Assembly (NCBI GenBank): GCA_035457005.1
Contig: DATICB010000001.1
Location: 3,246-67,245, forward strand
Direction: 5' to 3'
Length of the DNA: 64,000 nt
Source: Patescibacteria group bacterium
Lineage (GTDB): Bacteria; Patescibacteriota; Microgenomatia; Levybacterales; UBA12049
The notes beneath the pieces were generated by a model. It worked only from the letters and a program-made list of their open reading frames with translations. It did not search any database and had not been told where the DNA came from. Of this stretch, positions 4,289 through 63,328 are shown one piece after another. The position numbers and the translations under genes were made by a program. Positions within the stretch are counted from its first letter, which is position 1; each line of letters begins with the position of its first letter.

Positions 4289-4894
4289 TTACTGGGCGGA
4301 GGGTGTGCCAACTGTGGGCGTTGTGGATGGTGTTATGGTTATTGTATAGTCTGTTGTTTTTTTCAAAACTGATTCTATAATTCTATCTGCAGTCACCGCT
4401 GTTTTGGGTAAAAAGCTTATGGTTGTTGTTCCGGAAAATGTTGGGCTAACAGTATAGAAAAGGAGTGCAACAGTGCCTGTTCCTTTTTTGCCGGGCAAAT
4501 CAATTTGCTCAGTGAGTGCGTAAGAAATTCTGCCGCCAATTGTATCGATTGTATTAATCAAAGGACTCGGCTGCTGAAAAAAATCGCCGGGAGTAATAGT
4601 GACATTGGTCAGTGCTTGCGGGTCGTAGGCAAACTCGAGTTGTACTGAGTTGACGACATTGTCACCAGTGTCTATATGGACAGCAAGCGTTTGTTGGGTA
4701 AGTTGGGACGAGCTAGACGCATTTGCTGGGGTAATAGTAAGAGTGGTATGTGCATTAACCGATACTGGGGTTGGTGTTGGTTGTTGCGCTGGTGTTTGTT
4801 TTTTCTGATAAGGCGTTGAGACAAGTGCAAGATACAAAAGACCACAGGTGAGAAGAAAGAGAAAAAGAATTAACGCGAGCGTTTTTTTACTCAT
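4289..4894 (-). CDS. signal-anchored cohesin-like domain protein
   Basis: N-terminal TM segment. VQLEFAYDPQALTNV resembles the cohesin YDP..L motif. Paralogous to 62321-63328. Confidence 0.55.
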   Translation of the reverse strand: MSKKTLALILFLFLLTCGLLYLALVSTPYQKKQTPAQQPTPTPVSVNAHTTLTITPANASSSSQLTQQTLAVHIDTGDNVVNSVQLEFAYDPQALTNVTITPGDFFQQPSPLINTIDTIGGRISYALTEQIDLPGKKGTGTVALLFYTVSPTFSGTTTISFLPKTAVTADRIIESVLKKTTDYTITITPSTTPTVGTPSAQ

Positions 4895-4942: not shown

Positions 4943-7243
4943 TTAGTCTCCCGTGCATTTATTATTTGTTTGACCGCATGCGGTTACCAAGCTTCTCACC
5001 CATAAATTATAATTGAATGACCACTCATCGCCGGTTGTTCCTCCGTCTGGATAATCAAAGAAGTTCATAACATCGCCACAGGTAAATGTAATCGTCTGAT
5101 TTCCTGACACCATAGATTGTGGTGTTGTTGGATTTTGATTGCGACACGTTCGCAAAATATTGTAATCAAGTCCATTAATAACGTCATCTTGTCCCAAATT
5201 GCCTGTCCTGCCATCGACAATATCTCCCGGCAGAGGATAGACAGTAACGGTATTGGCAACACCAGAAGTAAGGGATATTTTTTCACCTTTACTACTGCTT
5301 TTACGTGCAAAGGCTTTGAGGAATTGAGGCACGCCAATATACACACGAAATTCTTTGGCAGTGGTGTAGGGAAGGACGCCAACATTAATAGGACTACTCA
5401 CAAACAGTCCAGTTGAGGAGTTATACGTGAGCGTTGTAGTTGTCCTGGTAGACGCATTGCCGCTTTGGTCAAAAATAACCACTCCTACATTGTTGCGGGT
5501 CTGATGGGCTGGATTTTTATTCTCAAAGTCCCCTGTCCCAATTCCTGGTAATTTGACATTTAGGGTAACTGTTGTTGTTTTACAAACAGTTGTTGGGATG
5601 TAGGTAGTTGGGCTGCTGTATGGACCGGTACAGGTATTGGTTTGTACTTTGTACGCTGCACCAAAGTTTTTTGCATTACTGTCATAACAACTTGTTCCCA
5701 AACTTCTGCTTGCTTTTAAGGATGAAGAAACAGTAAAAGCAGTACTTGTTGAGGAAGTGTTGCACTCATTGTATTCATCTTTCCCACTGACATCTCTGTG
5801 GAACCACCAATCAAGAATGTATTTGGTTGCACCACTTTTTGCCTTCACATTTGCCTTCACCCCAGCAAGTGTTGTCCCCGAGCAAACAGGGGAGAGGACA
5901 AGATCTGATTGTGCCGGCTTATCAGTACAGACATTAGGAGTATTTGATGTAAGCTGTTGTTGTTTTGGGTCGGCTTTGGTTGGGTCGTAGGGAGCACAGC
6001 AGGTATAATTTGATCCTTTAGCACATTTATAGGTAGGGTCTGCCTTTGTCCCTGCTTGGCAGGATGTTTGACACGCATCTGCGGTCTTGTATACTGTCTC
6101 ACAAGATGGCGCTGGAGCTGGTGTTGAGGTGGGAGCTTTGAGAGTTGGGTTTTGGGAGGCCACATAGCAACATTTTATATTCACACCGACACTTGCCATA
6201 CAGCCACTACTATTAGTGATTTCATGTGAACCACTCACCCCTAAATCTTGTTGAACCATCGTGCTACAGGGAATGGGTTGTATATTTGGACAGGTACCTG
6301 CTATTTGTGTAGCTATGTTAAATGGATCGAAGTATGGAGAACAAAAATTGACCATTACTGGGGACCATTGGTGAGAATAGGCACTTCCAGTAAATACGGC
6401 AGGGTAGTAACAGATGCCTTTCTCTGTTGCGCCATTTACAGTTCCACTACAAGAGTTTGCACCAGATGGAAGAGGCGCAGCTGTTGGGGTAGGGGTGATG
6501 GTAGGCTTGCCAGGGATACAACATTTTGCCACTGGAGTTCCTGGCAACGAGGTACTACAGGCACTTTCATTCACCGAAGATTCTGCTGCACCACTTGTGT
6601 TAGTCAAAGCGTCACATGAGGGGAGTGCTGTAGAATTGTTTGCTTTTGTTGCTACGTTTTTAGGGTTATTTGTATAGGTAGAGCCATAATTATTATGATA
6701 ATAACAAAGTCCATTATTTGTTGGTCCACAAGATTTTGCTGCATAAACTGTCCCATCAGACCCAGTTACTGGTACAGATTTTGGAGTAGGAGCGGCTTTG
6801 GGAGCAGTGTAGCCACATTTCCCATCTTGGTAATGACAGTTTGCTTTTGTTGTATAGGTACTGCATGTATTGCCACTAACATCACATATTTGCTGTCCTA
6901 CACATTGGCTATACTGCGTGTAATTATGGCAGTCTCTTTTTGCAAGGCAGCAAATATTACCAGATTTAGTAGGACATTCAGTGGTTTTAGCAGTGTAAAT
7001 ATCTGCACAATTCTCTGCAGATGTACAGAACGCTCCAGTTGCAACAGTTGAACATGTAACGGTGGTTGTACTTCCACCACCACCTTCAACCATGGCATGT
7101 TGTTGGGTGTTGGTTTGTTGGGGCAAGACTTGGACAGTCACAATAGTCCCGACAATCAAAATAAGGACAAGAAGGACTCCAAGGGTTCGGGAGTGAGTGG
7201 GAGAAAAAAGAAAGTTTTTTAGCTGTTGTAATTTTTCTTTCAT
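4943..7243 (-). CDS. large secreted Cys/Thr/Asn-rich protein (766 aa) with a C-terminal dockerin-like segment
   Basis: N-terminal TM anchor and about 60 Cys. C-terminal DDVINGLDYNIL resembles a dockerin Ca-binding repeat. Confidence 0.55.
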   Translation of the reverse strand: MKEKLQQLKNFLFSPTHSRTLGVLLVLILIVGTIVTVQVLPQQTNTQQHAMVEGGGGSTTTVTCSTVATGAFCTSAENCADIYTAKTTECPTKSGNICCLAKRDCHNYTQYSQCVGQQICDVSGNTCSTYTTKANCHYQDGKCGYTAPKAAPTPKSVPVTGSDGTVYAAKSCGPTNNGLCYYHNNYGSTYTNNPKNVATKANNSTALPSCDALTNTSGAAESSVNESACSTSLPGTPVAKCCIPGKPTITPTPTAAPLPSGANSCSGTVNGATEKGICYYPAVFTGSAYSHQWSPVMVNFCSPYFDPFNIATQIAGTCPNIQPIPCSTMVQQDLGVSGSHEITNSSGCMASVGVNIKCCYVASQNPTLKAPTSTPAPAPSCETVYKTADACQTSCQAGTKADPTYKCAKGSNYTCCAPYDPTKADPKQQQLTSNTPNVCTDKPAQSDLVLSPVCSGTTLAGVKANVKAKSGATKYILDWWFHRDVSGKDEYNECNTSSTSTAFTVSSSLKASRSLGTSCYDSNAKNFGAAYKVQTNTCTGPYSSPTTYIPTTVCKTTTVTLNVKLPGIGTGDFENKNPAHQTRNNVGVVIFDQSGNASTRTTTTLTYNSSTGLFVSSPINVGVLPYTTAKEFRVYIGVPQFLKAFARKSSSKGEKISLTSGVANTVTVYPLPGDIVDGRTGNLGQDDVINGLDYNILRTCRNQNPTTPQSMVSGNQTITFTCGDVMNFFDYPDGGTTGDEWSFNYNLWVRSLVTACGQTNNKCTGD

Positions 7244-9366: not shown

Positions 9367-9420
9367 ATTCTCTTTGTGGTGTCTTGTCAAAAAATATATT
9401 TCGTGTTACTTTAAATCACA

Positions 9421-10472
9421 TGCCAACCTCTCAAAAACACGCTGAATATCAATATTTAGATCTTCTGAAAGAAGCACTCAAAGACGGGATTATTAAAATA
9501 GACCGAGGGACAGATATAAAACTTCATAGTTTGTTTGGTCGACAGACACGCTACGATTTATCGCAAGGATTTCCACTGCTCACAACAAAAAAAGTGTACT
9601 GGAAGGGAGTCATTCACGAGTTGTATTGGTTTATGTCAGGGCAAACAAATATTAAATATTTAGTTGATAATAACGTGCATATTTGGGACGACTATCCGTA
9701 CAAAATATATAAGACAAAAATGAGTCAGCATCATTCTGTCATTGCGAGCGAAGCGAAGCAATCTAATAAAAATAAGATTGCCGTGTCGTCTTCGACTCCT
9801 CGCAATGACATTATTTTAACAAAAGAAGAATTTATAGAAAAAATAAAGACAAATAATACGTTTGCCAAAAAATGGGGAAATCTGCCAAGAATTTATGGAG
9901 AAATGTGGCGCAAATGGCCTACCAAGACAGGCCGAACAATAGATCAGCTTGCATGGGTTTTACAGGAAATGAAAGAAGATCCTGATGCAAAAAACCTTAT
10001 TGTCACCTCGTGGAATCCAGAATATATGTATACCATGGCGACTTACGAAGACGCGAATAGGTTTCCAATTTGCCACAACATGTATCAAATCAGCAATCGC
10101 AATGGCTATTTGGACTTACAGCTGTATCAGCGCAGTGCAGATTTATTTTTAGGAGTGCCATTTAATATTGCGTCTTATGCGCTTTTGACTATGATTCTGG
10201 CAAAAATTGCAGGACTCAAGCCTGGTGTTTTTACCCATACATTTGGCGATGTGCATGTGTATGACGATCATGTCGCGGCAGTAAAAGAGCAATTAAAGAG
10301 AAAACCAAGACCATTCCCGAAAATTAAGTTTACTCATGATTTTAAAACGCTCGATGCGTTTCGACCAGAATACGTTGAATTAGTCAATTATGATCCATAC
10401 CCAACTATTAAAGCAGAATTGACTGTTGCAGGTGGACTTTTTGATAAAAAAACAGGGAAGATGGCAGGGTAA
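9421..10472 (+). CDS. thyA: thymidylate synthase ThyA with a ~50-aa small-domain insertion that contains an R1 repeat
   Basis: QYLDLL, IHELYWF, YGEMWRKW, LQLYQRSADLFLGVPFNIASYALL. An in-frame TTG at 9384 is also possible as the start. Confidence 0.85.
9738..9809. repeat. R1 element in frame inside thyA
   Basis: GTCATTGCGAGCGAAGCGAAGCAATC...GATTGCCGTGTCG...CTCGCAATGAC, translated VIASEAKQSNKNKIAVSSSTPRND. Confidence 0.75.
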
Positions 10473-11085: not shown

Positions 11086-11354
11086 GCTTAAGAAAAATTA
11101 GCGCCTTTTTGCAGGTGATGGTGTTGGTTGGTTTTCTTGTGGCGTTTGTCCACTCTGACGACCAAGATCTCTCATCTGATCCGCTGTTGTTGCAGCTTTT
11201 TCTCTTCGAGCACCACGTCTTTTTTGACGCCAAAACTCTAAAACAGCGGCAATTACGTTTGGTTGGGAAGTTTGTCTTTGCTTTTCCATAATGGCTGCAT
11301 TGTAGATCCATCATGTTTATTTGTCAAATACAGAAATGTGATATAACTAAAACA

Positions 11355-11963
11355 ATGAAAATTTCAGCAATTGCAATTATTTCTAAAAATCGGGGATTGG
11401 GATTTGAGAATCATCTTCTTTTCCATATTCCTGGTGAGCTCCCACGATTAAAAGCAATTACCATGGGCCATCCAGTTGTTATGGGAAGAAAAACGCATGA
11501 GTCAATTGGGAGAATTTTGCCAGGAAGACTCAACATTGTTATTACCAGAAAAGGTGGAGAGGATGTGCCGGGTTTGCTTATTTTTGTTGACAGTTTGGAA
11601 AAAGCATTGGAGATTGCAAAAGAGAGTGAGGGAAAAAAAGTCAAAAAGTCTTCTTCGAGCAAGCAAAGCGAGTCGAGAAGTGAGTTGTCGACAAGCTCGA
11701 ACAAGAATAAGATTGCCGCGTCGGTCGCCAAAGGCGAACCTCCTCGCAATGACAACGAAGGCGAAATCTTTATCTTAGGTGGGGGACAAATTTTTGCAGA
11801 AAGCCTGTCAATAACAGATCGTTTGTATTTGACAATTGTTGATACAGAAGTACCAGCAGATACTTTTTTTCCAGACTACGAAAAAGAATTTACAAAAGTT
11901 ATTACTGAGGAGAAGAAAACAGATTGGGAATACCCCTACACATTTCTTACTTTAGAAAAATAA
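11355..11963 (+). CDS. folA: dihydrofolate reductase with a ~45-aa insertion built from R2 plus an R1 half
   Basis: ISAIAIISKNRGLG..LPRLKAITMGHPVVMGRKTHESIG, IFILGGGQIF. Confidence 0.85.
   Translation: MKISAIAIISKNRGLGFENHLLFHIPGELPRLKAITMGHPVVMGRKTHESIGRILPGRLNIVITRKGGEDVPGLLIFVDSLEKALEIAKESEGKKVKKSSSSKQSESRSELSTSSNKNKIAASVAKGEPPRNDNEGEIFILGGGQIFAESLSITDRLYLTIVDTEVPADTFFPDYEKEFTKVITEEKKTDWEYPYTFLTLEK
11651..11686. repeat. R2 element (CTTCTTCGAGCAAGC.AAGCGAGTCGAGAAG) in frame in folA
   Basis: Also present in recR at 38804-38836; translated SSSSKQSESRSE. Confidence 0.6.
11705..11752. repeat. R1 3' half-element in frame in folA
   Basis: AATAAGATTGCCGCGTCG...CCTCGCAATGAC, translated NKNKIAASVAKGEPPRND. 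Confidence 0.65.
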
Positions 11964-58366: not shown

Positions 58367-59869
58367 ATGAATAAATATTTTTTTTCAATAAAAATTGTAA
58401 CATTTTTTTTACTTTTTGTAAGTTTGGTCTCAAGCGGATGGGAACCTTTTTTCTTGCATGGCCCACACTTGGTGAAAGTGTATGCTACAGCCCCACTTCC
58501 TGCATATCGTGCGACTGGTGCGTTTACTGCCGGAACAGGCGCCATAACACCCCCTTTTCCCGCAGGTATGCAGGCAGATGACGTATGCTTGCTTGCTGCC
58601 AGTTCAGAAAATCAAGCAATTACACTTTCCAGTGCTCAAGGTTTTGCAGAGGTTCCGACATGGTCTCCCCAAAGTGCAGGTACCGCCGCGACCGATCCAG
58701 GATCACGTTTGGCTCTTTTTTGGAAACGAACCGTTGGTGGAGATACTGCGCCAACGGTTGCAGATTCGGGAAATAATACAGAAGGAGTGATTCATTGTTT
58801 TTCTGGGGTAGTGAACACAGGGAATCCATGGGATACAGGTGCAGGTGGCAATGATAGTGCTGCTAATGATACAACAGGTACTATCCCGGGCGCTACGACC
58901 ACAACAGACAACGATTTAGTGGTCTTGGTTATATCAACAAGTAACAATCTAACTGCATCAACAAATTGTTCTGGCTGGGCGAATGCAAATTTGGCCGCCA
59001 TTACAGAAAGACAGGATAATAGCAATACCGTAGGTCTTGGTGGTGGGTCTTGCATGGCAACGGGAACAAAAGCTACAGCGGGTTCGTACACAACAACTAC
59101 GGTAACTATGTCGGCAACAACATTCAAGGGCGCAATATCCTTGGCTCTTAAGCCACCACAGCTGTCAACCGTTACGACACAAGCTGCGTCAAGCATAAAG
59201 GACACAACAGCAATAGCAAATGGCACTATTACGGCAACAGGTGGAGGAAATGCTGACGAGGAAGGCTTTGTCTATGACGCGACGTCACACAGTTTGCCAG
59301 GAAACGTTGCTCCAGGGTCTTCTGGGTATGCTAGCTCGGCACAAAACATAGGGAGCTTTGGTGCCGGTGCGTTTACGACAAGCTTGACTGGATTGAGTGG
59401 CGCAACGACTTATTTCGGCAGAGCTTATGCGCACAACTCAGCGGGATATAGCTACGGTGGGGAGGTCAGCTTTACAACCGGTATAATTTCTGTTTCGGTT
59501 TCAGACGGAGTTATAGCATATGGACTTATTGCGCAAAACGTATCGAAAGACACCACTGCAAGCGGATTAAATGACACGCAAACAGCAACCAACAATGGGA
59601 ATATTGCAGAAGACTTTAATATTAAGGGACAAGACAGCTCTTGTCCATGGACACTTGCTTCAAGTACAGCTACGGACCAATATAAGCATGAATTTTCGAT
59701 AAATAGTGGAAGTAATTGGACTGCGCTTACAACAAATTATCAGTCTTTAGCAAGTAACATTGCATCGAATGGGACACAAACATTTGACTTACGTCTGACA
59801 ACCCCAACAGGGACAAGCTGTTTTACACAACAATCAGTAGATGTAACTATTCAAGCAGTCGCTCATTAA
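58367..59869 (+). CDS. secreted Thr/Gly/Ala-rich surface protein; C-terminal ~130-aa domain paralogous to 60532-61029
   Basis: Signal peptide. The C-terminus ISVSVSDG...TQTFDL..TQQSVDVTIQAVAH is about 60% identical to the downstream protein. Confidence 0.6.
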   Translation: MNKYFFSIKIVTFFLLFVSLVSSGWEPFFLHGPHLVKVYATAPLPAYRATGAFTAGTGAITPPFPAGMQADDVCLLAASSENQAITLSSAQGFAEVPTWSPQSAGTAATDPGSRLALFWKRTVGGDTAPTVADSGNNTEGVIHCFSGVVNTGNPWDTGAGGNDSAANDTTGTIPGATTTTDNDLVVLVISTSNNLTASTNCSGWANANLAAITERQDNSNTVGLGGGSCMATGTKATAGSYTTTTVTMSATTFKGAISLALKPPQLSTVTTQAASSIKDTTAIANGTITATGGGNADEEGFVYDATSHSLPGNVAPGSSGYASSAQNIGSFGAGAFTTSLTGLSGATTYFGRAYAHNSAGYSYGGEVSFTTGIISVSVSDGVIAYGLIAQNVSKDTTASGLNDTQTATNNGNIAEDFNIKGQDSSCPWTLASSTATDQYKHEFSINSGSNWTALTTNYQSLASNIASNGTQTFDLRLTTPTGTSCFTQQSVDVTIQAVAH

Positions 59870-59875
59870 AAAAAG

Positions 59876-60499
59876 ATGGCAAAAAATTTTCTTCAAACAT
59901 TTTTTATAGAAAACGGTACAAAGGAAATTGTTGCAAAAGGCGAGATGATAATCCGCATTGAAAAATCTCCACAGAGCATTTTTTTTATTGAAAAAGGACA
60001 TGTGGGGGCATATATTGGTCAAGAAAATCAACTGCAAGCAATTTATCGAAAAGGGGATATGTTTCCTTTCTCTCACCATGTTATGTATTCCAGTGTCTAC
60101 TATGCAATGACGGAGACGATTTTGCGCATACTGCCATCAAAGCGCCTATATAATCTTGTCGAAAAAGATAATCGGATAGCGCGGGATTTGGTACACGTAT
60201 TAATTGAAAGAGCCGATCTTTTGAAAGACCGGCTTACTATTGTCACTACACGTACAACATATTTTCGTGTTATTCAATGGATTTTATTTGCAGGTATGCA
60301 CTTTGGAAAACAAAAAAGAAAAGTTTTGGAAATATCTCTTATTGCTACACAACAGGAATTGGCAAATGCACTTGCAACAACACGCGAGACAATTAACAGA
60401 ATATTTTCCAAACTCGAAAAAAAGGGTCTTATCCGCACAGACCAGGAAGTATTGCGAATTCCATCAATAAAAAATTTACAAAAAGAAATTTCCTCTTGA
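59876..60499 (+). CDS. Crp/Fnr family transcriptional regulator
   Basis: cNMP-binding-like domain plus HTH (LANALATTRETINRIFSKL). Confidence 0.65.
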   Translation: MAKNFLQTFFIENGTKEIVAKGEMIIRIEKSPQSIFFIEKGHVGAYIGQENQLQAIYRKGDMFPFSHHVMYSSVYYAMTETILRILPSKRLYNLVEKDNRIARDLVHVLIERADLLKDRLTIVTTRTTYFRVIQWILFAGMHFGKQKRKVLEISLIATQQELANALATTRETINRIFSKLEKKGLIRTDQEVLRIPSIKNLQKEISS

Positions 60500-60531
60500 C
60501 AAGACATGTGATATATATCACTATAAATTAT

Positions 60532-61029
60532 ATGAGATTTCTTTTCATTGTTTTTTCTATTGTCGTTGTGTCGCTATTTGGTTTTGTCTCTTTTGCGCAA
60601 GCAGCAACAACGGCATCGGTTGCAGCAACAGTTACTGTTCAAAATATTTCCGTGAGTGTTTCGGATGGATCGGTAACATATGGTACATTAGGGGTTAATT
60701 CATCTGCTGGAACAAATGGATCAGACACTCAAACAGCAACCAACAATGGTAATGTTGCAGAAGACTTAAATATTAAAGGACAAAATAGCGCAACATGGAC
60801 ACTCGCAAATTCTGCAGCATCAGATGCCTACGTCCATCAGTTTTGTGTTGCAACCTGCGGGTCAGCACCAACAAATTACACAAAACTAACAACTGCATAC
60901 CAAGCACTTGCGACGAATATCGCATCCAATGGAACACAAACATTTGATTTATATATTACGACTCCAACATCGTCCTCGAGCTTTACGCAACAATCTGTTG
61001 ACGTAACTGTGCAAGCAGTTATACACTAA
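60532..61029 (+). CDS. small secreted surface protein (SCPU/WxL-like beta-domain; paralog of the 58367 C-terminal domain)
   Basis: Signal peptide. Shared ISVSVSDG, TQTATNNGN.AED.NIKGQ, WTLA, TQTFDL, TQQSVDVT.QAV.H. Confidence 0.55.
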   Translation: MRFLFIVFSIVVVSLFGFVSFAQAATTASVAATVTVQNISVSVSDGSVTYGTLGVNSSAGTNGSDTQTATNNGNVAEDLNIKGQNSATWTLANSAASDAYVHQFCVATCGSAPTNYTKLTTAYQALATNIASNGTQTFDLYITTPTSSSSFTQQSVDVTVQAVIH

Positions 61030-61071
61030 ATCCCTTGCGATAGGATTTGCAATCCTGTATGATCTAGCCAA

Positions 61072-61686
61072 ATGAAGAAATTCCTCTTTTTATTATTATC
61101 TCTTGCACTTTTTCTTCCCGCGTCAGCATTTGCACGAATTGGCGTCGGCGTTGGTATTGGAAAAATTGTTGTTAATCAACAGTTGCGTCCAGGAATTATT
61201 TATGACTTACCTCCACTAACCGTTATTAACACAGGAGACACAACAACAAATTATCAAGTTGCAGTAACATTTAATCAAAGACAGGCGCAAAAATTTCCAA
61301 AAGCAGATTGGTTTATTTTTTCACCAGATAAATTTCAGCTAGCTCCCGGAAAAGTACAGCGAGTCGATGTAAAAGTAAATTTGCCGCTTATGATGGAGCC
61401 AGGGGATTATTTTGCATATTTAGAAGCACATCCTTTGGCTGTTGATAAAAATGGTGCAACAACAATTAATATTGCTGCTGCTGCAAAATTATACTTTACT
61501 GTTGTTCCGGCAAATATTTTCCAGGCAATGTATTACAAAACAAGCTCGTTTTGGGAACTTTACCAACCATGGACAACTGTTGTTGCAATCCTTTTTGTCT
61601 TTGTTGTTGTCGGGGTGTTACTAAAGAAATATGTTCATATTGAAATCAATATGAAACAAAAATCAACACCACCGCGCAATGAATGA
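61072..61686 (+). CDS. surface protein with N-terminal signal peptide and C-terminal TM anchor (DUF916-like topology)
   Basis: Signal peptide, beta-rich ectodomain, C-terminal hydrophobic helix then KKY. Confidence 0.5.
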   Translation: MKKFLFLLLSLALFLPASAFARIGVGVGIGKIVVNQQLRPGIIYDLPPLTVINTGDTTTNYQVAVTFNQRQAQKFPKADWFIFSPDKFQLAPGKVQRVDVKVNLPLMMEPGDYFAYLEAHPLAVDKNGATTINIAAAAKLYFTVVPANIFQAMYYKTSSFWELYQPWTTVVAILFVFVVVGVLLKKYVHIEINMKQKSTPPRNE

Positions 61687-62324
61687 AATATCTAGCAATT
61701 CTTTTTTCCGTGGCAGGATTATTATTAGTGCATAGACTTGTGTATGCATCGACTTCGTCATCGATTAACGCTACTATTAAATTAAGCGTCTGTGGTAATT
61801 TGGTCGCAGAAGGTGGGGAAGACTGTGATAATTCCGATTTAAAAGGAAAAAGTTGTACAGATTTAGGATATGGTGGAGGGAATTTGTCTTGTGATATAAG
61901 TTGCAGTTATAACACGAGTGGCTGCATTGCAGCAACACCTACGCCAACACCGACTCCCACGCCAACCCCAAGTGTTACACCTACACCAACGCCAGGTGCA
62001 CAAACAAGTTCAACAAGTGACGTTACGACAACGCCAACCAATGCACCAACAAATACGATAGTCTTTCCAACAATTCGTGCAAATGTGCAATCATTTTTCC
62101 CCAAGGCGCTGCAAGCGTTTGTTGGAGACAATGGTACAATAGCAGTAGTACAGCTCCATGCCGTATTGACACAATGGGTCAGTGGGTGGAAGAATTTTAT
62201 TCAGACCCAGCAAGACAGTCCGCAAAAAGGTGCTGCGATTGCAGCATCATCATGTGATGTTAATCAGGATGGGATTTGTGACATTTTGGATTTGTCGGTA
62301 TTACTATTTCACGTAACACAATGA
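61683..62324 (+). CDS. secreted Cys-rich protein with PT linker and C-terminal dockerin-like motif
   Basis: CDVNQDGICDILDLSVLL matches the dockerin DxNxDGxxDxxDxxxL pattern; (TP)n linker. Confidence 0.55.
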   Translation: MKYLAILFSVAGLLLVHRLVYASTSSSINATIKLSVCGNLVAEGGEDCDNSDLKGKSCTDLGYGGGNLSCDISCSYNTSGCIAATPTPTPTPTPTPSVTPTPTPGAQTSSTSDVTTTPTNAPTNTIVFPTIRANVQSFFPKALQAFVGDNGTIAVVQLHAVLTQWVSGWKNFIQTQQDSPQKGAAIAASSCDVNQDGICDILDLSVLLFHVTQ

Positions 62325-63328
62325 ATATATTAATATCCAGAACGCAAATTATTTTATATATTGCAATTTTTGCCGTTTCGTCATGGATTTTAATTCATGT
62401 CCTTAGTCTTCTTGGCGTTTTCTTAGCTCTGGCGTATCCTATTTGGTGGTTTTTTGCACCAAGACAAACAGTATGTCTTTTTTGTAGATCACGGGCAAAT
62501 GGTCAGATATGTCCACTGTGTCATCGAGTTATTTCCAAAACAGACAGTATGTCTCCCAAAACATTCTTCTCCGCACTTTTTAATGGTGGCATACTTTTTG
62601 CATTTTCTCTTGTGAGTATTGCGATTGTTGTTGTAGAAAGTCAATTTCTACATTTCTTAGGATTTCCACCAGCAAAAGCATCTGTCTCTTTTACTATTCC
62701 AACAGCAAATACGTATCGATTAGGTGAAATATTTCCTATGAAGTTGGCAATAAGCGGTGTAGATGTTCCAGTGAACACAGTCCAGGCAGATATTGCATAT
62801 GATCCACAAAAACTAGAAATTGTGAATATCTCAACAGAAAATTCTTTCGCAACCATTTTTATCCAAAAAGAAATTAATAATACTGTTGGATATGCACGAC
62901 TTACCGGTGGTCTTCCTAATCCCGGATTTTCGGGGAAAGATGGACTGTTTGGAACAGTGTACTTTAAAAGTAAACAGCCTGGCGTAACAGATGTGCGGTT
63001 TTTGCCAACAACTATGGTTTTGGCAAATGATGGGAAGGGAAGTGATGTCTTGAAAAATTTTGGGACTATTTCATACTTGGTCTTGCCAGAAAAAATATCT
63101 GATGCAGAGCAAGCGCAAGAAAATGGAAAAAATAACGTGCTTGGCGCAAGCACTAGTGGAACACAAATGATTTTCTACACAGACGAAGATGTTTTGGGAA
63201 GTAAAACAGCCGCGAAAGACAGTCTGCAGGTCAATTCATCCAAGCAATCCACTCCGGGATTTTTTGACGTTTTAGGATATGTGGACGGATTTATTGTTTC
63301 GGTTTGGCAAAAAGTACTGCATGTGTGA
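62321..63328 (+). CDS. membrane protein with Zn-ribbon-like CxxC pairs and a cohesin-like domain
   Basis: VQADIAYDPQKLEIV cohesin YDP..L motif; paralogous to 4289-4894. Confidence 0.55.
   Translation: MNILISRTQIILYIAIFAVSSWILIHVLSLLGVFLALAYPIWWFFAPRQTVCLFCRSRANGQICPLCHRVISKTDSMSPKTFFSALFNGGILFAFSLVSIAIVVVESQFLHFLGFPPAKASVSFTIPTANTYRLGEIFPMKLAISGVDVPVNTVQADIAYDPQKLEIVNISTENSFATIFIQKEINNTVGYARLTGGLPNPGFSGKDGLFGTVYFKSKQPGVTDVRFLPTTMVLANDGKGSDVLKNFGTISYLVLPEKISDAEQAQENGKNNVLGASTSGTQMIFYTDEDVLGSKTAAKDSLQVNSSKQSTPGFFDVLGYVDGFIVSVWQKVLHV

Follow-up and report, generated by a model that had tools for sequence, protein, structure and literature searches.

The window (the whole 64-kb stretch of DNA analyzed) belongs to a MAG of the Patescibacteria, which are tiny and mostly uncultured. 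Six open reading frames, designated A to F, were confirmed between positions 58367 and 63328, all on the positive strand. Five of them form a surface-protein operon that is conserved across Patescibacteria, and the sixth, B, is a regulator gene inserted into it. The order of a large protein with a shared domain at its extreme C terminus, followed by the small protein C and then by D, E, and F, was found at about 80 loci in Microgenomates, WWE3, Dojkabacteria, and Parcubacteria. In Daviesbacteria, the same order was present with a homologue for every protein, and a Roizmanbacteria locus (L061) belongs to the same family. Among 83 related loci, E lies directly downstream of D in 79, and F follows E in 72.

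Gene A (58367–59869, positive strand) encodes a secreted protein of 500 amino acids (aa) consisting of a signal peptide (aa 1–30), a head module (aa 31–268), an Fn3-like middle module (aa ~269–371), and a C-terminal pilin-like domain (aa 372–500; nt 59480–59869, including the stop codon). Gene C (60532–61029, positive strand) encodes a small secreted protein of 165 aa, which comprises a signal peptide (aa 1–24, with the mature protein starting at A25) and the pilin-like domain alone. The original prediction had put the last ~130 residues of A at about 60% identity to the whole of mature C. The level of identity was borne out, with 82 identities in 131 positions (63%; E=1e-38) between aa 374–500 of A and aa 39–165 of C, and the predicted common blocks ISVSVSDG, TQTATNNGN, WTLA, and TQQSVDVT.QAV.H all fall within the alignment. 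The coverage was overstated, as the match starts 14 residues past the predicted signal-peptide cleavage site of C. The alignment was obtained by composition-adjusted BLASTP, and the likeness reflects true paralogy rather than a common Thr/Ser composition. The C-terminal domain of A also matched positions 35–167 of the C-family profile.

No Pfam match was found in A, and no Pfam domain was found in the more than 511 homologues of C. The C family contains 1,311 cluster representatives, over which the sharing of the domain between small and large proteins is consistent. In all 54 large proteins of the related loci, the shared domain ends 0 to 4 residues from the C terminus, and it is likewise C-terminal in the large proteins among the best 150 of the 1,311 representatives. 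The heads of the large proteins are hypervariable and include DUF7483, BNR-like, and fn3 modules. The head of A itself was found in only 1 of the 54 and its Fn3-like module in 4; homologues of this head number 43 and occur alone or joined to fn3, PKD, or SASA domains.

The mature N terminus of C, ATTASVAATVTVQN (aa 25–38; nt 60604–60645), is a putative donor strand. Its motif V-x-A-T-V-T-V-Q-N is nearly invariant (V, 95%; A, 98%; T, 94%; V, 98%; T, 98%) in the small proteins only: the strand is absent from A, and nothing conserved corresponds to it in the large proteins. When the structure of C was predicted with AF2, the shared domain formed a beta-sandwich, modeled with good confidence over aa 61–165, and pLDDT fell below 50 over aa 23–60. 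The most conserved stretch of the family (aa 25–60) is therefore the part that the AF2 monomer could not place. The best structural matches of the model, all of them weak, were to donor-strand-exchange pilins (Fim, Pap, Csu, CFA, TasA, and cannulae). We propose that C is the polymerizing major subunit and that A is a tip adhesin, which would accept a strand and has no donor strand of its own.

Gene D (61072–61686, positive strand) encodes a protein of 204 aa with both of the predicted membrane-targeting features, namely an N-terminal signal peptide (aa 1–21) and a C-terminal transmembrane (TM) helix (aa 167–187). Between them, the N-terminal segment RIGVGVGIGK, which is conserved and rich in Gly, is followed by one Ig domain of the PapD-like type (aa ~30–144) and by a conserved amphipathic helix (aa 149–163). 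We propose that D serves as a membrane-tethered chaperone.

Gene E (61683–62324, positive strand; 213 aa) follows, and its product has a signal peptide (aa 1–22), a conserved N-terminal beta-strand INATIKLSV (aa 28–36; nt 61764–61790), a Cys-rich DUF4215-like module (aa 37–81), and a Pro/Thr linker (aa ~82–124), which in Parcubacteria is replaced by Big_6/Big_13 Ig domains. The N terminus is thus Cys-rich and the C-terminal module, which ends in CDVNQDGICDILDLSVLL, dockerin-like, both as had been predicted; the latter scored 13.4 bits against Dockerin_1 (Pfam cutoff, 22.9), and orthologues at the same operon position scored 37.9 and 28.3 bits. The N-terminal motif of the E family, [IV]xAT[VI]K[IL]S[VI]CGN, forms an alternating strand that has the V-x-A-T-V core in common with C. 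On a donor-strand matrix built from C, the N terminus of E outscored other open reading frames with signal peptides, and just 38% of E proteins, which are not independent sequences, exceeded the 95th percentile of the controls. The likeness between the N termini of E and C is that of a short beta-strand pattern. We propose that E acts as a strand-donating terminator and a stalk.

Gene F (62321–63328, positive strand), whose first 4 nt are also the last 4 of E, encodes a polytopic membrane protein of 335 aa. An alignment spanning the whole protein shows 46% identity with the orthologue from Daviesbacteria. It contains a hydrophobic hairpin (aa ~8–46), a 2xCxxC zinc ribbon (C52/C55/C64/C67) that is predicted to be cytoplasmic and is present in 36 of 67 F orthologues, a TM helix (aa ~87–105), and an extracellular cohesin domain (aa 123–237; nt 62687–63031), the topology being deduced from the positive-inside rule. 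The expected cohesin assignment was confirmed by Pfam (32.4 bits; cutoff, 24.1). A paralogue had been placed at 4289–4894, and the homology of F to this 201-aa protein is real (34% identity over 129 aa, E=3e-7); the paralogue is encoded on the minus strand, the positive strand there being interrupted by stop codons. We propose that F provides the anchor in the membrane and that the E dockerin binds to it.

Gene B (59876–60499, positive strand; 207 aa), located between A and C, encodes the Crp/Fnr-family regulator that had been predicted there. Its cNMP-binding domain and winged HTH gave three Pfam matches, all above the gathering cutoffs: HTH_Crp_2 (53.3 bits, 2.7e-14), Crp (42.7 bits, 4.5e-11), and cNMP_binding (29.0 bits, 1e-6). 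B was missing from all 83 related loci, and L084, the closest relative, has it in the same place; judged by this distribution, the operon gained B by an insertion specific to this lineage. The 32 nt that separate B from C contain a CRP-type box, TGTGATATATATCACT (60507–60522, no strand assigned), a candidate operator for B situated 10 nt before the start codon (ATG) of C. Its core, GTGATATATATCAC (60508–60521), is a perfect 14-nt palindrome. The box is the only zero-mismatch occurrence of GTGAT-N4-ATCAC in the 64-kb window and has one mismatch to TGTGA-N6-TCACA. It is just preceded by a TTGACA hexamer (60496–60501). The box recurs unchanged in L084, where the bases that separate it from TTGACA are different. 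B probably controls C through this palindrome, to which it would bind. The 21-nt spacing between −35 and −10 elements around the palindrome does not make a good sigma-70 promoter, and promoter-like matches in the region were at background level. The original prediction did not extend to the phylum-wide conservation of the operon, the membership of E and F in it, or the lineage-specific insertion of the Crp gene.

We consider it most likely, with about an even chance of being right, that the operon builds a strand-swapped adhesive fiber or stalk, which the pairing of a cohesin with a dockerin would fasten to the membrane. Assembly would proceed by beta-strand complementation as in chaperone-usher and Pam pili, without an usher. 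This model starts from the observed gene content, paralogy, synteny, distribution of the N-terminal strand, and fold resemblance, together with the family-level identities of the Crp, cohesin, and dockerin domains. From these we infer that strands are exchanged, that C polymerizes, which way the fiber is oriented, what D, E, and F do, and that B is the regulator. All five proteins would be exported by Sec, and membrane-held D would transiently cap the incomplete Ig fold in the pilin-like domains of newly exported A and C. A, with its variable head, C-terminal acceptor, and no donor strand, would initiate the structure and so take the tip position. Copies of C would then add on, each inserting its N-terminal strand into the previous subunit. 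E, which carries a similar strand and no acceptor domain, would fill the last groove and therefore terminate growth. Its Pro/Thr or Ig-domain spacer would cross the wall, and its dockerin would dock in the extracellular cohesin of F, tethering the whole structure. In this lineage, B would probably regulate the pilin gene. One locus (L078) has the order A-D-E-F; it lacks the small C and yet retains D, E, and F, which is consistent with direct binding of E to A. Counting against the model, many loci have no large protein within 7 kb. The single domain of D, the shortness of the strand pattern common to E and C, the poor promoter spacing at the palindrome, and the sequence and profile comparisons described below also speak against it.

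A non-polymeric complex resembling the WxL clusters is an unlikely alternative, though one that deserves serious weight. Here, A and C would sit on the wall and on D through the shared domain, with D playing the part of WxLIP; A and C may receive a strand from D without any fiber being formed, and E and F would be an independent or accessory surface scaffold. WxL/Csc clusters of Firmicutes encode a small WxL protein, a large WxL protein, and WxLIP, which consists of DUF916, DUF3324, and a TM segment (PMC10599100, PMC9772566, PMC1534035). The three-part architecture and the topologies are identical to those found here, the shared domain invariably lies at the C terminus, the large proteins have variable binding modules as heads, and a strand of the membrane-anchored Ig protein is predicted to enter the shared domain. 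However, WxL domains are defined by two motifs (PMC9772566), whereas C has a single invariant W-x-L, and WxLIP has two Ig domains (PMC10599100), whereas D has one and lacks the NQIDKxxxYFDLK motif. The host is a member of the Patescibacteria rather than the Firmicutes, and the operon has a dockerin/cohesin pair instead of an LPxTG partner. The original prediction had guessed at these families; neither WxL (PF13731) nor SCPU (PF05229) matched at E≤1 among 36 C-family members, and neither DUF916 nor DUF3324 matched among 32 D-family members. Its outline of a surface cluster in which a small and a large protein share a beta-domain, and which also encodes a Crp regulator, an Ig protein with a TM anchor, and a dockerin/cohesin pair, stands; its family assignments gained no profile support. 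A WxL-like complex would also leave unexplained the nearly invariant N-terminal strand kept by the small protein only, and the presence of E, with its similar strand, and F as constant members of the operon.

Less probable still, the locus could be a Microgenomates version of the Pam operon described in CPR bacteria, with A and C corresponding to PamA/B/T, D to PamC/D, and nothing further new. Pam pili of "Candidatus Mycosynbacter amalyticus" (CPR/Saccharimonadia) are donor-strand-exchange filaments, experimentally shown and solved by cryo-EM; they are accompanied by predicted TM-anchored PapD-like chaperones and by a membrane anchor that donates a strand (bioRxiv 10.64898/2026.03.03.709456). 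Pam homologues are reported mainly from Saccharimonadia and Microgenomatia, and among the PamA homologues detected with a language model, one that has an N-terminal domain and a chaperone-usher-like C-terminal domain is from a Roizmanbacteria genome (bioRxiv 10.64898/2026.03.03.709456), the group that also contains L061. Both systems are CPR-specific, Sec-exported, and without an usher; in both, the C-terminal domain of the subunits resembles truncated-Ig chaperone-usher pilins, and a C-terminal TM helix retains PapD-like proteins at the membrane. In either model, the tip subunit (PamT; A) lacks a donor strand, and the terminator (PamR; E) both supplies an N-terminal strand and serves as the tether of the fiber. 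Their composition differs, in a comparison made by description and between filaments that have been seen and a locus known by computation. The major Pam pilins have two domains (39–55 kDa) and donate the interdomain linker, whereas C is a single domain of 140 aa (~14 kDa) that would donate its N terminus. Pam chaperones have two domains and D, the candidate chaperone, has one; PamR, which anchors the Pam pilus, has two FnIII domains and a TM helix of its own, whereas here the putative anchor is split between the dockerin protein E and the polytopic cohesin protein F. Cohesins and dockerins are not mentioned in the main text of the Pam paper (bioRxiv 10.64898/2026.03.03.709456). The C-family profile matched no PDB chain at E≤10 and the D-family profile only unrelated chains (E≥0.6), in a copy of the PDB sequences that may lack the Pam models 25PZ and 25QA.

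It is very improbable that the genes encode co-located, functionally independent secreted proteins, for example a cohesin scaffold alongside proteins of the S-layer or the wall, that do not assemble specifically with one another: no protein is functionally annotated, Ig-like folds are generic, and the interactions are putative, but the strict gene order across very divergent classes, the translational overlap of E and F, and the consistent domain sharing are hard to explain without a physical complex.

Besides Pam pili and WxL clusters, the chaperone-usher pili of Gram-negative bacteria are among the closest known systems, and they match the fiber model in the logic of the tip adhesin. Their pilins (Fim, Pap, CFA/I, and archaic Csu) are the nearest to the model of C, FimH and PapG combine a variable head with a C-terminal pilin domain lacking a donor strand as A does, and the fold of D is PapD-like. 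At the level of sequences and profiles, no significant relation to Fim pilins or FimC was found (hhalign probabilities, 0.3–2.5%; pairwise z-score, 1.0), and the motifs matched by eye, GVGVGxGKI in D to GVALGATRV in the chaperones and AAKLYF to RIKLYY, are statistically nonsignificant. Unlike chaperone-usher systems, this one has no outer membrane and no usher, and D is a membrane-anchored protein of one domain rather than a chaperone of two. We know of no chaperone-usher system with cohesin-dockerin anchoring. In that respect, the locus resembles non-cellulosomal cohesin-dockerin pairs: F carries a Pfam cohesin, the two genes are adjacent, and the orthologues of E have canonical two-repeat type I dockerins. 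It differs from them in containing no glycoside hydrolases or scaffoldins, in having the cohesin carried by a polytopic membrane protein whose zinc ribbon is predicted to be cytoplasmic, and in joining the dockerin just to a short strand, a Cys-rich knot, and a spacer.

Six consecutive open reading frames, designated A to F, occupy the positive strand at positions 58367-63328, and all six genes of the original prediction were recovered. These are A (58367-59869, 500 aa), B (59876-60499, 207 aa), C (60532-61029, 165 aa), D (61072-61686, 204 aa), E (61683-62324, 213 aa), and F (62321-63328, 335 aa). Gaps of 6, 32, and 42 nt separate A from B, B from C, and C from D, respectively. The D/E and E/F junctions are 4-nt ATGA-type overlaps (61683-61686 and 62321-62324), an arrangement suggestive of coupled translation of the three genes. 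Scans of the operon for promoters and terminators returned matches at the background level only, no inverted repeat was found upstream of A, and a hairpin 3' of C was not significant (z=-1.06).

B is indeed the Crp/Fnr regulator that it was predicted to be: the cNMP_binding, HTH_Crp_2, and Crp models all matched above the Pfam cut-offs, with weak similarity to FixK, PtrA, and Fnr in NCBIfam. The exact B protein is not on record elsewhere. The Crp gene is absent from all 83 examined related loci and is present at the same place in the closest relative, locus L084, whose C is 84% identical; thus, B is a recent lineage-specific insertion. Prediction of Crp sites returned a single perfect palindrome, which precedes C. 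Within the 32 nt that separate B from C is TGTGATATATATCACT, which departs from the CRP consensus at one position and has a perfectly palindromic 14-nt core. This CRP-type GTGATATATATCAC box is the only zero-mismatch GTGAT-N4-ATCAC match in the window, and it is identical in L084, even though the bases between it and the upstream TTGACA differ. The spacing from TTGACA to TATAAA near the box is 21 nt, which is a poor fit to a sigma-70 promoter. Overall, FNR boxes and CRP boxes occur in the window no more often than expected by chance, and only this one perfect palindrome stands out. We propose it as a candidate operator of B. A second near-match to the same pattern (GTGATGTTAATCAG, one mismatch) lies at 62254-62267, inside the dockerin-coding end of E and 54 nt before the start of F, and is probably a by-product of the CDVNQD codons.

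The paralogy between A and C was upheld. Residues 374 to 500 of A and 39 to 165 of C are 63% identical (E=1e-38), and the composition-adjusted statistics used rule out a mere sharing of Thr/Ser composition. C is 100% identical to a hypothetical protein from a "Patescibacteria group bacterium" MAG and has more than 511 homologues, none of them with a Pfam domain. The C-family profile was run with HMMER against all 1.84 billion cluster representatives and matched 1311 proteins at E<=1e-3, of which 780 reached E<=1e-10; the figure of 1311 is a count of representatives at 50% clustering. The best 150 of the 1311 matches displayed two architectures only: small proteins of about 170 aa, composed of a signal peptide and the beta domain common to A and C (the C-domain), and large proteins with this domain at the very C terminus. 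In 54 of 54 large proteins, the domain ended 0 to 4 residues from the C terminus.

Structure prediction of the shared domain, which accompanied the original prediction as a proposed check, yielded a beta-sandwich with good confidence for residues 61 to 165 of C (AF2, 36 sequences). Residues 23 to 60 had a pLDDT below 50, yet they include the most conserved residues of the C family. When the C model was compared to the whole PDB with Foldseek, the matches were almost exclusively subunits that undergo donor-strand exchange, among them FimA, CS20, PapE, FimF/G, CfaB, CsuA/B, PapA, Caf1, the TasA fiber, and CanA/X. Probabilities reached 1.0, but the E-values were weak (3.9e-3 at best) and the TM-scores were about 0.4. 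At the sequence level, neither FimA nor a FimA/I/F/G alignment gave a significant hhalign match to the C profile (probabilities of 0.3 to 2.5% for C and D), and PDB sequence searches with single proteins and family profiles returned nothing meaningful. The C-family profile matched no chain at all in a copy of the PDB sequences that may not include the Pam pilus models 25PZ and 25QA. TasA/camelysin had no Pfam or NCBIfam match among the six proteins, 36 C-family members, and 32 D-family members.

Small and large proteins differ in the segment that precedes the sandwich. Alignment to the C profile covered 76 small and 52 large family members. Directly after the signal peptide, the small proteins carry a near-invariant segment, t-a-t-V-t-A-T-V-T-v-Q-N, with V, A, T, V, and T conserved in 95%, 98%, 94%, 98%, and 98% of them. 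In the large proteins, homology begins only at [IV]S[VI]S[VI]SDG, and the residues before it are unconserved and belong to the upstream domain. C has the conserved N-terminal strand, and A lacks it. The upstream parts, or heads, of the large proteins vary. Among 54 large proteins, one shares the head of A and four share its Fn3-like module; other heads are DUF7483, BNR-like, fn3, or of unknown type. Only 43 homologues of the A head were found, stand-alone or fused to fn3, PKD, or SASA. The tip adhesins FimH and PapG combine a variable receptor-binding head with a pilin domain that accepts a strand without donating one, while rod subunits do both. Strand-less large proteins with variable heads follow the same pattern.

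Homologues of D number more than 825, and JGI names some of them "P pilus assembly chaperone PapD." Its model (pLDDT 77) consists of one Ig sandwich (residues 30 to 144), a conserved amphipathic helix, and a transmembrane helix. The C-terminal membrane anchor noticed originally was confirmed by both the model helix (167 to 187) and the hydrophobic segment (166 to 184). Matches to Pfam PapD_N were sub-threshold (15.4 bits versus a cut-off of 23; best family E-value of 0.0045) and occurred in 11 of 32 D-family members, none of which matched PapD_C. Alignment of the D profile to FimC with hhalign had a probability of 0.3%, and the D-family profile matched only unrelated chains (E>=0.6) in the same copy of the PDB sequences, which may not include 25PZ and 25QA. 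By eye, the mature N terminus of D (GVGVGxGKI) resembles the FimC A1 strand GVALGATRV, which contains Arg8, and its last strand (AAAAKLYF) resembles the G1 strand SRIKLYY, which contains Lys112. Because the pairwise D-FimC alignment was not significant (z=1.0 against shuffles), this likeness in R8/K112-like motifs is an eyeball observation and only a lead.

In the consensus of the E family, a signal peptide is followed by a conserved strand ([IV]xAT[VI]K[IL]S[VI]), a Cys-rich module (CGNxxxEGGEDCD..., weakly similar to DUF4215), a spacer, and, as the fifth part, a dockerin. Microgenomates have a Pro/Thr linker as the spacer, and Parcubacteria have Big_6/Big_13 Ig domains. The strand of E shares with C a V-x-A-T-V core and alternating hydrophobic positions, and E has no acceptor domain. 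When scored with a matrix built from the C strand, E N termini had a median of 0.5 bits, as opposed to -5.5 bits for 255 other signal-peptide-like open reading frames; only 38% of the E proteins, which are phylogenetically related, exceeded the 95th percentile of the controls. The dockerin assignment held for the family and less so for E of the window, which scored 13.4 bits against a PF00404 gathering cut-off of 22.9 and retains the second repeat, the first being degenerate. Orthologues in the same operon slot have two canonical repeats and scored 37.9, 28.3, and 22.1 bits, the first two exceeding the cut-off.

F contains the expected cohesin domain (PF00963, 32.4 bits versus a cut-off of 24.1; 24.7 bits for the Daviesbacteria orthologue). 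Ahead of this domain lie a hydrophobic hairpin, a basic loop that contains a 2xCxxC zinc ribbon (36 of 67 orthologues have the ribbon), and a third transmembrane segment; the positive-inside rule therefore places the cohesin domain outside the cell. From adjacency and co-conservation, the dockerin of E is predicted to bind the cohesin of F. F is also paralogous to the protein encoded at 4289-4894 (34% identity over 129 aa, E=3e-7), as proposed, with the correction that the latter gene is on the minus strand. This second cohesin protein (201 aa; Pfam Cohesin, 25.4 bits) adjoins a 766-aa Cys-rich secreted protein (4943-7243, minus strand) whose C terminus, DIVDGRTGNLGQDDVINGLDYNIL..., looks dockerin-like and has no Pfam match. 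The two may form another cohesin-dockerin surface pair in the same genome.

Elsewhere in the window, two genes of the folate pathway carry in-frame inserts: one at 9738-9812 inside a thyA-like gene (9384-10472) and the other at 11675-11760 inside a folA-like gene (11313-11963). They share 27 nt at 85% identity plus CTCCTCGCAATGAC and encode peptides of the form ...SNKNKIA.S...PRND..... An inverted repeat, GTCATTGCGAG...CTCGCAATGAC, borders the thyA-like insert. The inserted sequence resembles a small, palindromic element of the MITE type that entered in frame.

We evaluated how widely the gene order is conserved. In "Ca. Daviesbacteria" it is A' (365 aa)-C-D-E-F, each protein being homologous to its counterpart in the window (E, 35% identity; F, 46% over the full length). 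When one genome per species was searched with the D profile, 165 stretches encoding a relative were found; 80 of them were examined, together with three more loci. The examined loci came from Levy-, Davies-, Woese-, Collier-, Beckwith-, Ames-, Shapiro-, Roizman-, and Pacebacteria, WWE3, Dojkabacteria/WS6, several Parcubacteria classes, and "Ca. Microsyncoccus archaeolyticus." Profile searches of all locus open reading frames revealed the order large-C-D-E-F in essentially every untruncated locus, with sizes of 228 to 1592 aa for the large protein, about 170 for small C, about 205 for D, 180 to 530 for E, and about 290 to 350 for F. Parcubacteria-type loci (including L040, L043, L045, L050, L053, L054, L056, L057, L060, L062, and L064) have a longer E, in which Ig domains replace the Pro/Thr linker, and an added second cohesin membrane protein of about 580 aa downstream of F. 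The latter has a cohesin-like domain and Big_13 Ig domains between its signal peptide and a C-terminal transmembrane helix, together with a charged cytoplasmic coiled-coil tail. A natural minimal version of the operon is found in a cultured lineage, "Ca. Microsyncoccus archaeolyticus" PMX.50 (L078, 5503-11341), where the order is large (488 aa)-D-E-F-second cohesin protein and the small C gene is absent. This arrangement is expected if E caps A directly and C is an optional extender.

Patescibacteria (CPR) make up a large share of bacterial diversity, and most of them are attached to other cells. To our knowledge, little is understood of the machinery by which they attach, and the majority of their surface proteins carry the annotation "hypothetical." The operon is a phylum-wide unannotated surface-assembly operon and is among the most conserved unannotated surface-protein cassettes of Patescibacteria; no relevant publication on PapD, cohesin, or dockerin in Patescibacteria turned up in a literature search. 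We propose that A and C would be exported by Sec with incomplete Ig folds, held open by membrane-tethered D. A would nucleate the structure, copies of C would join by insertion of their N-terminal strands, and E would end growth by donating its own strand. The dockerin of E would then plug into the cohesin of F, with the E spacer spanning the wall. Patescibacteria have no outer membrane, and in such a cell an usher would be unnecessary. We infer each of these interactions from the parts list, the conservation patterns, and the resemblance in fold that were observed. An usher-free strand-complementation fiber or stalk with a cohesin-dockerin anchor is the most likely reading, and the full mechanism has in our estimate an even chance of being correct. 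If it is, five protein families without a Pfam family (E and F have only their dockerin and cohesin modules) would gain names and roles, the range of donor-strand exchange would widen to include a minimal version with single domains and no usher, cohesin-dockerin pairing would acquire a new role as a pilus anchor, and the heads of the large proteins would become candidate determinants of host specificity. With "Ca. Microsyncoccus archaeolyticus" as at least one cultured carrier, the idea is experimentally testable.

Judged by its published description, the closest known system appears to be the Pam pilus of "Ca. Mycosynbacter amalyticus," a report of which partly anticipates our purely computational model (bioRxiv 10.64898/2026.03.03.709456). 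Cryo-EM proved that Pam filaments form by donor-strand exchange between two-domain pilins that donate their interdomain linker; two-domain, membrane-anchored PapD-like chaperones, a strand-less tip (PamT), and an RbmA-like, membrane-anchored, strand-donating terminator (PamR) were predicted (bioRxiv 10.64898/2026.03.03.709456). This logic is close to that of our model, but the parts differ: in the operon, the putative pilin and the putative chaperone have one domain each and the candidate anchor is a dockerin/cohesin pair, in place of two-domain pilins, two-domain chaperones, and an RbmA-like membrane anchor. Cohesin and dockerin are absent from the main text of the Pam paper (bioRxiv 10.64898/2026.03.03.709456).

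Chaperone-usher pili, in which the N-terminal strand of a neighbor completes the incomplete Ig fold of each subunit, resemble the operon weakly in subunit folds and more closely in the logic of the tip adhesin. They differ from it in having an usher and a chaperone of two domains, and no sequence signal linking them to the operon was detected. Their periplasmic chaperone consists of PapD_N and PapD_C, whereas D has one domain and a transmembrane helix. Their usher resides in the outer membrane, and no large conserved usher-like gene was found in the operon of about 80 loci.

The original reading of the cluster as a Csc-type surface complex was right about architecture, but its family names were not supported. 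As in WxL clusters, a small and a large protein share a C-terminal domain, and D, like the WxL-interacting protein (WxLIP), ends in a transmembrane helix; strand insertion from WxLIP into WxL has been predicted for WxL/Csc clusters as well (PMC10599100, PMC9772566). However, neither A, C, nor any of 36 C-family members matched WxL (PF13731) at E<=1. The WxL domain has two conserved Trp-x-Leu motifs on adjacent strands, about 68 to 106 residues apart (PMC9772566), whereas C has one invariant W-x-L (W89/L91, NWTLG) and no second conserved Trp. Pfam and NCBIfam searches for DUF916 and DUF3324, which together with a transmembrane helix constitute WxLIP, had no match in the six proteins or 32 D-family members, and D has neither two tandem Ig domains nor the NQIDKxxxYFDLK motif. 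The small/large/Ig-transmembrane architecture is therefore common to both, while the profile, the two motifs, and the two domains are not. The SCPU (spore coat U) profile, PF05229, which was named as a further possibility, was not matched by any of the six proteins, the 36 C-family members, or the 32 D-family members. Sortase-dependent and type IV pili were rejected: C ends in ...VQAVIH with no LPxTG sorting signal, and its signal peptide is of the Sec type with A-x-A cleavage rather than a class III (G/FxxxE) prepilin peptide.

Set against these systems, the operon could, as a tentative and rather unlikely extension of our model, represent a third, undescribed class of donor-strand-exchange surface fiber found in many Patescibacteria classes. 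Such a fiber would be built from a single-domain pilin of about 14 kDa with a one-domain, membrane-tethered chaperone, and swappable tip heads would set the host or substrate of these episymbionts. Its base would be held by a strand-donating adaptor through a dockerin on a membrane cohesin rather than by an usher, a sortase, or a transmembrane helix of a subunit, which would be the first structural use of cohesin-dockerin pairing as a pilus anchor.
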